A stretch of DNA of 64,000 nt from Lachnospiraceae bacterium. Lineage in GTDB: Bacteria > Bacillota > Clostridia > Lachnospirales > Lachnospiraceae. The position numbers and the translations under genes were made by a program. The notes beneath the pieces are model-generated. The model saw only the letters and a list, made by a program, of their open reading frames with translations, did no database searches and was not told where the DNA came from. The number at the start of each line of letters is the position of its first letter. The stretch's first letter is position 1. Of the stretch, positions 22,176 through 24,321 are shown piece after piece. Where the stretch lies: positions 9,223 to 73,222 of the forward strand of contig JAFZUW010000013.1 in the NCBI GenBank assembly GCA_017618195.1, written 5' to 3'.

Positions 22176-22973
22176 TTAACGCTTCCGTACGCACCAGATG
22201 ACGTTCTTCGCCGAGCCTTCGCCGCTTTCATAATGATAGCCGCCGTACACGTTCACGATTTCGAATCCGGTCAGTTCCAGAAGGTATTTCATCTCCTGAC
22301 GGTACGTCTGGCGCATCTTCAGGGGACGGATTCTCTCTCCGATCGCATTTCCGCTGTCGTCTAACGTCTCAAACTTCCAGTTTCCGCTCATAATCTGCGT
22401 ATAAGGGTCATAATTGATCGCGTTATAAATCCGCTCGCGCTTTCCCTGCTTATTCACATACTCCAGCCGGAAGGAATAATCGGTATCCTTCGTATTCATC
22501 TGCTGTGCCTGGAAATAAGGGTGCGGGTCAAACGTATTAAACGTAAGCATTCCGCCGTCCGTGAGGTTCTCTCTTATGTTCAAAAGCGCGGCGCGCTGCA
22601 GTTCAGGAGTTGTTAAGTGCATGAATCCGCTCCTTGCGATAATCGCGCAGGAATATTTCCGTTCGCTTCGAAATGCGGTCATGTCCGCAGGGAAGATGTT
22701 CAGGTTAAATCCCCGTGCCCTCGCTTTGGCCGCTGCCACATCGCACATGGCTTCCGAAAGGTCGGTTCCGTCGGCCTTAATTCCGTGCTCGGCAAGATAA
22801 AGTAGTACCGCGCCGGTTCCGCATGCGATATCAATCACACCATCCTGCCCGTATTTTTTTGCGAAATCGAGATAAAACTCCCGGAATCCCTCATGATTGT
22901 CTTCGTTCTTATACATTACATCGAGATACAAATCGTAATTCTCGGCAACATCACTGTAATCATGTAAATCCAT
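22176..22973 (-). CDS. Class I SAM-dependent methyltransferase
   Basis: Motif I VIDIACGTGAVLLYLAE. The start is trimmed to MDLHDYSD, preceded by AGGAG. It lies 13 nt downstream of the 2H-GNAT gene. Confidence 0.8.
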   Translation of the reverse strand: MDLHDYSDVAENYDLYLDVMYKNEDNHEGFREFYLDFAKKYGQDGVIDIACGTGAVLLYLAEHGIKADGTDLSEAMCDVAAAKARARGFNLNIFPADMTAFRSERKYSCAIIARSGFMHLTTPELQRAALLNIRENLTDGGMLTFNTFDPHPYFQAQQMNTKDTDYSFRLEYVNKQGKRERIYNAINYDPYTQIMSGNWKFETLDDSGNAIGERIRPLKMRQTYRQEMKYLLELTGFEIVNVYGGYHYESGEGSAKNVIWCVRKR

Positions 22974-22986
22974 ACCTGCTCTCCTT

Positions 22987-23979
22987 TCAATACAAATCCT
23001 TTTCCATATAACCGCAGGTAAACGGAAAGAAATCGAATTTCTGCGTTCCGACATGAACGAAACCGTATTTCTCGTACCAGCTGCGAAGCACTTTATTCTC
23101 TTCCACGATTCCGATCTTCAGCTTGCTCTTTCCGAGCATCCGTGCTTTCGTAAAGCAGTCCTCAAGCAGCTTTGTCCCGATCCCGTTACGGCGGAATTCC
23201 GGAAGTACCGCGAGGTTATTGAGTTCCGCGCTTCCGTCCTCCGCGAGTCCGAGGGAATAGTAACCCATGATTTTGCCCCGGTGCTCAAAGACGTACATCG
23301 GGCGCTTCTCAACCAGAAAATGATACGCGAGCCGCCCCTCGTCGGTTGCAAATGCGGTGAAGCGCGGGGCATTTTCCTTCGTGAAACCGAACTCATCCGC
23401 AACGGTCCGGAATGACTTGCGGATTACCTTGACGCACTCCGGAATCTCGCCCGCAGCCATCTCACGGATACTTCCGCGCACGGCTTCCTCCTTCTTCAGA
23501 TACACGGTTGTGATGTACCTCGCCGGGAAGAACTCGTACAGGTGAAGCGAGGTTACCTTGCCGACGAACGGCTTGAATTCTTTCAATACGGCCGGTACCG
23601 CACGCGCGATCACGTCCGGCTCGTCAATCAGCATGGTGGTGTGCGCCGCCCAGTCGAAGCTGTCGCCGAACGATTCTTTCAAATCAAGCAGGTCCCGGTT
23701 CGCATCGGGCGCGATAAAAAGGACGTATCCGCCGTTAAATATGCCGACATGGCTGAAGGATACTTCGAAAACGCTTATCCGCTCCGCAACACTTTGTAAA
23801 AGCGCCTTCACGACCTCCTCCTGTTCACAAGGGAAGGAATCTAAGGTGATGTGCGCCGGAAGATTCCTGGTATGGGTTCCGACGAAGCCCTGCTCATACA
23901 GTTTGTTCTGGATCCCGGACAGGTACGCTTCGGTCGCGTCATCATATCCGGCCAGGATGTAAAGTTTCTTATCTTCCAT
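22987..23979 (-). CDS. Fusion protein: 2H phosphoesterase (LigT / 2'-5' RNA ligase-like) + GNAT acetyltransferase
   Basis: The N-terminal half carries two HxTx motifs (AHITL, AHTTM) about 70 aa apart. The C-terminal half has a GNAT core (LAVLPEFRRNGIGTKLLE...YEKYGF). RBS AGGAGG. It sits directly behind the T-box terminator. Confidence 0.7.
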   Translation of the reverse strand: MEDKKLYILAGYDDATEAYLSGIQNKLYEQGFVGTHTRNLPAHITLDSFPCEQEEVVKALLQSVAERISVFEVSFSHVGIFNGGYVLFIAPDANRDLLDLKESFGDSFDWAAHTTMLIDEPDVIARAVPAVLKEFKPFVGKVTSLHLYEFFPARYITTVYLKKEEAVRGSIREMAAGEIPECVKVIRKSFRTVADEFGFTKENAPRFTAFATDEGRLAYHFLVEKRPMYVFEHRGKIMGYYSLGLAEDGSAELNNLAVLPEFRRNGIGTKLLEDCFTKARMLGKSKLKIGIVEENKVLRSWYEKYGFVHVGTQKFDFFPFTCGYMEKDLY

Positions 23980-24029
23980 GTTGTCCTCCTGTTCCGCCTC
24001 ATAAGGCTTGGTTGATTGGTTTTAACAAC

Positions 24030-24286
24030 ATAAGAAAAGCACCCGCAAGACCATAGTAATACAGTCTTAAGGGTGCTCTCGCACGGTTCCACCTTAACTT
24101 TTCACTTCAGATTCCGACAAATCCTAACCCTTAACGCAGGTGTACGGTAACGCTTACTCTCTTCGGCATTACAGCTCGGGAATGGTTTTCATTCATCGTC
24201 CTCATAAACGGCTTTCACCAAATGCCGTTCTCTCTTTCTGATTCGTGAGGAACTACTCTTTCCGTCAGTGCTTTTCTCATGTTATT
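24030..24286 (-). promoter_or_regulatory. T-box leader RNA (tRNA-sensing transcription attenuator); candidate specifier ACC (Thr)
   Basis: Minus-strand elements in canonical order:
- AGAGTA (24254-24259).
- AG-bulge AGAAAGAGAG.
- Distal loop TTGGTGAAAG between AACGGC/GCCGTT arms.
- Specifier-loop 3' side GAA-A-ACC-A (ACC = 24184-24186), followed by TTCC pairing back to GGAA.
- A second AGAGTA plus GCGTTA (F-box-like).
- T-box core AAGGTGGAACCGTGCGAG (24078-24093).
- Terminator GCACCCTTAAGAC...GTCTTGCGGGTGC plus TTTTCTTAT (24030-24076). Confidence 0.8.
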
Positions 24287-24292
24287 GTCGAC

Positions 24293-24321
24293 ACTATAAC
24301 AATTCCGGACTGATTTGTCAA
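24293..24321 (-). promoter_or_regulatory. Sigma-A type promoter of the T-box leader
   Basis: TTGACA (24316-24321), 17 nt, TATAGT (24293-24298) on the minus strand. Confidence 0.65.

Follow-up and report, generated by a model that had tools for sequence, protein, structure and literature searches.

Why should the charging of a single transfer RNA (tRNA) govern genes for a phosphoesterase, an acetyltransferase and a methyltransferase? This question was raised by a stretch of 64,000 nucleotides (nt) from a Lachnospiraceae bacterium (assembly GCA_017618195.1, contig JAFZUW010000013.1, positions 9,223 to 73,222; the whole stretch is called the window below). Here, the original prediction had placed a complete threonine T-box leader in front of genes for a fusion of a 2H phosphoesterase with a GNAT acetyltransferase (2H-GNAT) and for a methyltransferase, and not in front of an aminoacyl-tRNA synthetase (aaRS), biosynthesis or transport gene. 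This assignment was upheld by the match to the Rfam T-box model RF00230 and by the gene calls. As read from the sequence, the promoter, an attenuating leader of approximately 250 nt specific for tRNA-Thr(GGU), the fusion gene and the methyltransferase gene are one transcription unit. The prediction had also taken the T-box regulon to consist of aaRS, amino acid biosynthesis and transport genes; according to published surveys this is mostly so but not entirely, about 8% falling to genes whose function is unknown or unrelated (Wels et al. 2008, PMC2494555; PMC3766115).

The T-box is the only one revealed by cmscan in the 64 kb of the window. Its match spans positions 1-219 of the model, i.e., the full length, and its score is significant, exceeding the gathering score of 93 bits (Table 1). 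The elements are arranged in the order Stem I, Stem II, the IIA/B region with GCGUUA, Stem III and the T-box sequence (AAGGUGGAACCGUGC), and every stem was recovered by a consensus fold of the leader. The promoter, the Stem I motifs, the T-box core and the terminator with its U-run were all located where they had been predicted. Both promoter hexamers (-35 and -10) were unvarying across the leader alignment A1, and the specifier loop reads GAA-A-ACC-A-UUCC. The 5' arm of the terminator overlaps the 3' arm of the antiterminator; since both hairpins use the common segment GCACCCUUAAG, they are mutually exclusive on folding. The upper stem of the terminator showed compensatory changes among orthologues. 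A degraded aaRS remnant behind the leader was considered and rejected, because the terminator and the start codon are only about 50 nt apart, which leaves no room for one, and the arrangement is conserved across orthologues.

Table 1. Features of the threonine-responsive operon, with positions in the window.
Feature	Position	Strand	Evidence
Sigma-70-type promoter, TTGACA-17-TATAGT with TG extension	24293..24321	-	11/12 positions match
Stem I, tRNA-decoding domain: AGAGUA K-turn region, AGAGA bulge, GGUGAAAG distal loop	24173..24280	-	Model R1, 128.7 bits
T-box leader, RF00230	24066..24277	-	Rfam cmscan, 96.8 bits, E 5.1e-20
Specifier codon ACC (Thr), followed by conserved purine A24183	24184..24186	-	Raw sequence and Rfam alignment
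Antiterminator helix with 7-nt bulge, -8.6 kcal/mol	24067..24097	-	Folded alone
UGGA of antiterminator bulge, predicted partner of tRNA 3' end (N73)CCA	24088..24091	-	Sequence, Rfam alignment, fold
Intrinsic terminator hairpin, -26.5 kcal/mol, z -5.9, then UUUUCUU	24028..24080	-	Folding
Ribosome-binding site AGGAGG, 5 nt 5' of ATG at 23979	23985..23990	-	Sequence
2H phosphoesterase domain, residues 1-165 of fusion; HxT motifs H43-I-T45 and H113-T-T115	23485..23979	-	PF13563
GNAT domain, residues 166-330 of fusion, with stop codon; acetyl-CoA motif R263-x-x-G266-x-G268	22987..23484	-	Pfam, Foldseek
Class I methyltransferase dependent on S-adenosylmethionine (SAM), 265 amino acids; own ribosome-binding site AAGGAG	22176..22973	-	Methyltransf_25

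By default, the terminator would form and transcription would stop. When tRNA-Thr is poorly charged, the anticodon of uncharged tRNA-Thr(GGU) would pair with ACC in Stem I, and the free NCCA end of this tRNA would pair with the UGGA bulge; its binding would stabilise the weak antiterminator, so that RNA polymerase would read into the genes. We infer this read-through from the elements described and consider this course of events very probable. As read from the bulge, the A of UGGA implies a U73 discriminator in tRNA-Thr. In indirect support of this, UGGA was also found in more than 100 thrS leaders among the matches listed, where the search pattern itself required UGGA; the bulge of the Bacillus subtilis thrS leader is UGGU. 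No tRNA-Thr gene was found in the window or in the fetched loci, all of which together gave one tRNA, not specific for threonine.

The threonine identity of the switch was established by homology. Metagenome contigs were scanned for the exact 19-nt core AGTTAAGGTGGAACCGTGC, a pattern that includes UGGA, and at least 120 contigs were obtained. Among these matches listed, thrS, the gene of threonyl-tRNA synthetase (ThrRS), is the first gene downstream in 105 of 120 contigs; the sample holds near-duplicates and comprises 96 distinct leaders. A covariance model of Stem I (R1) was built from six leaders and gave 98 matches, most of them preceding thrS. The specifier position is occupied by ACC in 97 of them, the sole exception being an ileS leader with AUC (locus L027). 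The predicted specifier thus recurs as the same triplet at the same position in about 90 homologous thrS leaders, and since the specifier lies outside the search pattern, this recurrence independently confirms the threonine specificity. The thrS leader of locus L003 and the window leader have a mean column identity of 78% and an identical 23-nt core.

Covariation and conservation both indicate selection on the leader. Across 86 distinct leaders, compensatory double changes were found in 20 of the 26 pairs of Stem I; 92% of the Stem I cells were paired, compared with 80% after shuffling and about 40% with the partners slid, and the observed value of covariation was reached by none of 500 shuffles. 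The same leader (93-97 bits) was found before the 2H-GNAT orthologues of L001, L027, L030 and L033, whose proteins are identical to the window fusion by 89% (L001), 68-69% (L027 and L030) and 72% (L033), and also before the orthologues of the metagenome loci L132 and L136; the leader is kept at protein identities as low as 66-72%. Comparison of the window with orthologues at about 70% coding identity gave a nucleotide identity of 84-89% for the leader and 69-71% for the coding sequence; selection thus constrains the leader more strongly than the gene under its control. A chance or decaying T-box was ruled out by the covariation together with this conservation of the leader above the coding sequence. 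All related sequences are metagenome-assembled, so their taxonomic labels may be wrong.

The fusion gene encodes a protein of 330 amino acids (aa). PF13563 matched residues 37-149 (35.1 bits against a curated cut-off of 27, E 1.7e-8) and the Pfam models Acetyltransf_1, _7 and _10 matched residues ~200-313 (E 2e-14 to 8e-12); two HxT motifs and a GNAT domain are thus combined in one product, in agreement with the original prediction. Among 14 publicly available fusion proteins (66-90% identical), neither the two HxT motifs nor the residues R263, G266 and G268 vary. Modeling of the fusion using AlphaFold2 with 91 sequences led to a pLDDT of 95.9 (a model from 14 sequences, with 49.8, was not used). 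A Foldseek search with this model gave a TM of 0.8 to 8osp and 1tiq, and the 50 matches listed were all GNAT structures of the small-molecule type; the neighbours include 8osp, PaiA, YncA, PA4866, phosphinothricin acetyltransferases and the tabtoxin resistance protein. For the fusion protein, no curated NCBIfam model was found at or above its cut-off, Acetyltransf_3 (PF13302, RimL/MccE-type) remained below it (17.5 vs. 25.4 bits, E 0.007) and the PADLOC models of anti-phage defence gave no match. The 2H domains are acidic, with an isoelectric point (pI) of 4.8-5.5.

Relatives of both domains also occur apart from the fusion. Clostridia commonly encode stand-alone GNATs of 160 aa (55-72% identical) and also GNAT-GNAT and methyltransferase-GNAT fusions (P0017, P0019), and stand-alone 2H proteins of 162 aa (57-68% identical) are common too. 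The stand-alone relatives of the window 2H domain are located, without T-boxes, in GNAT-rich islands that also hold a Peptidase_S51-GNAT fusion and ABC-2 exporters. T-box linkage as a general property of the GNAT family was considered and rejected: only L003 of the 19 genome loci with a stand-alone or otherwise fused GNAT has a T-box.

The methyltransferase gene starts 13 nt past the stop codon of the fusion gene, as had been noted originally. Its product matched Methyltransf_25 with 58.4 bits (cut-off 27, E 1e-15) and contains the glycine-rich SAM motif DIACGTG. The best partial matches include small-molecule N-methyltransferases, namely daptide methyltransferase, glycine/sarcosine N-methyltransferase, DesVI/TylM1-type enzymes and CcbJ. 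The PADLOC model mad2 also matched this protein (E 4.7e-17), over the SAM-binding core only, which is probably a generic methyltransferase similarity and not membership of a defence system.

Comparison of the loci revealed that 2H, GNAT and methyltransferase genes are recurrently linked to thrS and to Thr T-boxes, and to judge from these sequences the linkage is wider than the original prediction saw. The methyltransferase gene directly follows the fusion gene in L030, L033, L132 and L136, and the series T-box, 2H-GNAT, methyltransferase and MFS_3 pump was found in L030, L033 and L136. The T-box is followed by 2H-GNAT and MFS_3 in L027 and by 2H-GNAT only in L001. A Thr T-box stands directly before a methyltransferase gene alone in L151 (602-1735; product about 66% identical to that of the window), and neither a 2H nor a GNAT gene was found in the whole 14-kb contig. 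In L003, thrS is followed by a GNAT gene 18 nt away, and in L073 by a 2H gene of the window's subfamily. The T-box body is missing from L002, which carries an 82% identical orthologue, and the methyltransferase from L001 and L027; the module is thus evolutionarily fluid.

Some details of these loci were observed besides. In L002 (4400-4535), no more than about 10 nt separate a TTGACA-17-TATAGT promoter from the terminator hairpin, which is intact; the promoter is thus fused to the terminator. In L001 (2136-2194), the next genes downstream of the fusion gene, 58 nt away, are the pair of response-regulator and histidine-kinase genes also present in the window. L027 contains three T-boxes in 9 kb, at 263-528 (-), 3698-3909 (+) and 6537-6744 (+), whose targets are ileS (specifier AUC), 2H-GNAT (ACC) and proS. 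Macro-domain and ADP-ribosylglycohydrolase genes are located just 5' of the T-box promoter in L030 (1671-3663); both are absent from the window, and a 58-aa fragment is all that is left in L033 (3447-3623). Their presence beside a 2H enzyme recalls ADP-ribose-cyclic-phosphate metabolism. In L049 (3566-10585), a Thr T-box precedes genes for two ABC exporters (610 and 603 aa long), a copy of thrS, and hisS. This copy encodes a product 61% identical to the ThrRS of L003 and seems to be frameshifted close to the anticodon-binding domain; downstream, the opposite strand carries a Fic-domain gene.

A second 2H subfamily (188 aa; PF13563 E ~1e-13) has its own HxS and HxT motifs. Its genes were found directly after a Thr T-box in L039, L084, L109 and L126, and immediately after thrS, at about +1850 to +1890 nt past the T-box core, in L036, L038, L043, L048, L091, L096, L121, L123, L137, L168-L170 and L180. 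Among the matches listed, a 2H gene follows thrS in 12 of the 68 thrS loci with a visible downstream region, namely in L073, with the window's subfamily, and in 11 loci with the 188-aa form; the stop and start codons of the pair often overlap. The contigs labelled Acutalibacteraceae (L168-L170) contain the T-box and the thrS-2H pair as well, and in L180 the order is thrS, 188-aa 2H and an MFS_1 gene. In L172-L175, the 188-aa 2H gene (L172:4001-4567) resides in a small element whose other genes all concern mobility (integrase, NikA-like, AAA_25, TnpV and Mob_Pre relaxase). The 188-aa proteins keep an identity of 73-88% whether they come from thrS-linked, T-box-linked, mobile-element or Muribaculaceae-labelled (Bacteroidota) contexts, a pattern suggestive of horizontal transfer. 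T-boxes were looked for at the stand-alone type-a 2H genes, the mobile-element copy and a copy linked to hom (homoserine dehydrogenase), and none was found there.

These arrangements bear on the origin of the window leader. Sequence comparison indicates that it is a paralogue of the Lachnospiraceae thrS leader, arisen by duplication or rearrangement, and that its source was probably thrS operons already bearing a 2H or GNAT gene. As the followers of a duplicated thrS leader, the enzymes would be accessory members of the ThrRS regulon. The same history could have left a leader without adaptive meaning, if thrS was lost or moved from a thrS-2H/GNAT operon whose enzymes serve generic housekeeping detoxification. 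Operons of both kinds do exist (thrS-GNAT in L003 and thrS-2H in L073), the majority of the stand-alone homologues have no T-box, and the deletion of the T-box body in L002 and the loss of the methyltransferase in L001 speak for this history too. Nevertheless, such a leftover is highly improbable: over about 30% protein divergence the leader is conserved above the coding sequence and its pairs are kept by compensatory changes, the association has originated more than once and involves different genes (two 2H subfamilies, GNAT and methyltransferase), and a thrS remnant is absent between the terminator and the start codon.

What, then, would the enzymes do when threonine charging fails? By analogy with known resistance enzymes, we favour a protective role, with a probability of roughly 0.4: the module would inactivate an antimetabolite that blocks the charging of tRNA-Thr. 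The candidate target is a threonyl-adenylate-like inhibitor of ThrRS, or an analogue of Thr or phosphohomoserine by which the cell is functionally starved of Thr. The 2H domain would cut a phosphodiester of this compound, the GNAT would cap its amine by N-acetylation and the methyltransferase by N-methylation, and in relatives the adjoining MFS pump would export the inactivated product. The T-box would serve as the damage sensor of this resistance module, since a compound that blocks ThrRS or Thr synthesis would raise uncharged tRNA-Thr and would thus be a natural inducer through the T-box.

Several lines of evidence point to detoxification. The genes often adjoin efflux pumps, one 2H subfamily has the behaviour of mobile cargo that spreads horizontally, and the 2H domains are acidic. 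The structural neighbours of the GNAT include detoxifiers of amino acid analogues (YncA, PA4866, phosphinothricin acetyltransferase and the tabtoxin resistance protein), and the best matches of the methyltransferase include enzymes acting on small molecules. The GNAT-rich islands of the stand-alone 2H homologues contain exporters, and in L049 the T-box precedes two ABC exporters and thrS. Each enzyme was found alone under Thr control, which suggests alternative routes of inactivation rather than the steps of a pathway. Finally, hydrolysis of a phosphorus linkage and capping of the amine are the ways in which aminoacyl-nucleotide aaRS inhibitors are neutralised. In microcin C immunity, such an inhibitor is inactivated by N-acetylation of its alpha-amine or by cleavage of a phosphorus linkage, the enzymes being the GNAT MccE2 and the hydrolase MccH (PMC8323819), and N-methylation abolishes the aaRS inhibition by aminoacyl-sulfamoyladenosines (PMC3817062).

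The coupling of 2H genes to thrS could also reflect healing of the tRNA-Thr 3' end or trans-editing. The 2H enzyme would then act on the terminal ribose and restore chargeable tRNA when charging falls, by opening a 2',3'-cyclic phosphate, by removing another block set by a tRNA-targeting toxin or by hydrolysing mis-acylated Ser-tRNA-Thr; this RNA end, or an aminoacyl group, would also be the substrate of the GNAT and the methyltransferase. The characterised 2H enzymes all act on 2',3'-cyclic or 2'-5' phosphate ends of nucleotides or RNA. The tight thrS-2H coupling with overlapping stop and start codons, the stand-alone 2H genes right behind Thr T-boxes and the gatCAB genes adjoining the 2H gene in L176-L178 are consistent with an action on tRNA, and the 2H cargo of the mobile element could be a counter-defence repair gene. 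However, a T-box should not mistake a cleaved or blocked tRNA for an uncharged one, pI values of 4.8-5.5 are unusual for tRNA binders, and a ligase, kinase or CCA-adding partner is absent nearby. There is also no evidence of a Thr-specific tRNase, and the small-molecule-like GNAT and methyltransferase, the methyltransferase-GNAT fusions (P0017, P0019) and the adjoining efflux pumps are left unexplained. A role at the tRNA end is the foremost rival of the protective reading, but we regard it as unlikely.

A further context of the 188-aa 2H gene directs attention to threonine supply. In L176-L179 (2H at L176:3001-3567), this gene is located immediately upstream of an ACT-domain gene, hom and a phosphomutase-family gene, with gatCAB on its other side in L176-L178; this gene set looks like a Thr-biosynthesis context. 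A TwoAYGGAY RNA (100.7 bits) was also observed in the L176 spacer. The enzymes could belong to a branch of salvage or metabolism in which Thr is released or spared. It would be switched on when Thr runs short, as hom-thrB-thrC and Thr transporters are, and its source would be, e.g., a precursor that is phosphorylated, acetylated or bound to a nucleotide, as in degraded t6A nucleotides. Amino acid supply is the canonical logic of the T-box regulon (PMC2494555, PMC3766115), and the MFS transporter could be an importer. On the other hand, PF05977-type MFS proteins are described as secretion effectors, the known Thr pathways include no 2H phosphoesterase, GNAT or N-methyltransferase, and acetylation or methylation of an amine consumes a usable amino acid and releases none. 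The occurrence of each enzyme alone under Thr control is unexpected for sequential pathway steps. In addition, being the sole cargo of a mobilisable element, together with the 73-88% identity across contexts, suggests a selectable protective trait. A function in threonine supply is thus quite improbable.

The inactivation of an antimetabolite, which we prefer, has observations of its own to face. The MFS genes found near the orthologous operons, with gaps of 126-218 nt, are absent from this window, the methyltransferase is absent from L001 and L027, and the L002 orthologue is without the T-box body. T-boxes are missing from most of the stand-alone homologues of the 2H and GNAT domains, and the 188-aa 2H gene that stands beside hom and a thrB-like gene without a T-box fits a metabolic role too. 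The GNAT and methyltransferase folds are too generic to point to a substrate, and the 2H cargo of the mobile element could equally be an anti-defence or RNA-repair gene. To our knowledge, no natural threonyl-nucleotide inhibitor of ThrRS has been described, and we know of no 2H enzyme that acts as a resistance determinant. All these points weigh against detoxification. More tentative still, and rather doubtful, is the wider proposal of a protective system, in which the 2H forms are counted together (alone, thrS-coupled, GNAT-fused and on mobilisable elements). Here, the Thr T-box would be the damage sensor, and 2H enzymes, N-acetyltransferases, N-methyltransferases and efflux pumps would neutralise a postulated natural compound, circulating in gut and rumen communities, that inhibits ThrRS or the supply of Thr.

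A comparison with known systems shows what is familiar and what is new in this operon. The leader resembles the thrS/thrZ T-box leaders of the B. subtilis type in having Stem I with ACC, Stem II, IIA/B, Stem III, a UGGN bulge and a competing antiterminator and terminator; ThrRS is encoded downstream there, whereas the 2H-GNAT fusion and the methyltransferase are encoded here. A precedent in regulatory logic is rtpA (yczA)-ycbK of B. subtilis, where a Trp T-box acts on anti-TRAP and a putative efflux protein, so that tRNA charging is the signal for another cellular response and the target is not an aaRS, biosynthesis or importer gene (PMC2494555). In that case the product is a regulatory protein of Trp control, while here the products are predicted enzymes.

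Microcin C immunity, with MccE2 (GNAT), MccH (HIT phosphoramidase) and MccF, is used as a working analogy only, and Acetyltransf_3 was below its cut-off here. The hydrolase here has a predicted 2H fold instead of the HIT or S66 type, the target would be ThrRS instead of AspRS, and the genes are under T-box control outside a biosynthetic gene cluster. With LigT/ThpR and other bacterial 2H enzymes (PF13563/PF02834), the window domain shares the Pfam match and the two invariant HxT motifs; it differs in being fused to a GNAT, controlled by tRNA-Thr, acidic and without RNA-repair partners nearby, and its activity is predicted. The GNAT toxins TacT, AtaT and ItaT share the GNAT fold and a thematic tie to tRNA charging. 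However, no antitoxin gene was found adjoining the fusion gene, which has the T-box leader upstream and the methyltransferase gene downstream. The window GNAT is fused to a 2H domain, co-transcribed with a methyltransferase and belongs to a widespread family of stand-alone 160-aa proteins in detoxification-like islands. In the literature, nothing was found on a T-box with GNAT or 2H genes or on a 2H enzyme with ThrRS, the recurrent thrS-2H gene pair was not found described, and T-box targets of the 2H/GNAT type are not discussed in the TBDB paper.

Two other features of the window were recorded. A c-di-GMP-I riboswitch (RF01051) was found at 43027-43125 (-) with 42.8 bits (gathering score 35), upstream of an open reading frame (ORF) of 200 aa at 42378-42980 (-). 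An ORF of 488 aa at 18006-19472 (-), whose sequence resembles that of a trypsin/HtrA-type serine protease, ends in a C-terminal run of four near-identical NPFGQGGSQGQT repeats; its orthologue in L001 carries a different repeat.

The conserved and selected Thr T-box on a phosphoesterase-acetyltransferase-methyltransferase module extends the T-box regulon beyond amino acid supply. The comparative data add the thrS-2H gene pair, often translationally coupled, across Lachnospiraceae and Acutalibacteraceae. Since the switch is specific for Thr, the function of the enzymes is directly testable, and this specificity is an experimental handle on two large families of uncharacterised gut and rumen proteins. 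If the enzymes act on the tRNA end, a new quality-control enzyme for tRNA-Thr would be at hand. If they inactivate an antimetabolite, they would point to a new natural inhibitor of ThrRS or the Thr pathway and to a new mobile resistance mechanism. The protective system as a whole, if true, would provide the first resistance determinant of the 2H family and the first detoxification operon induced by aaRS stress through a riboswitch-type element.

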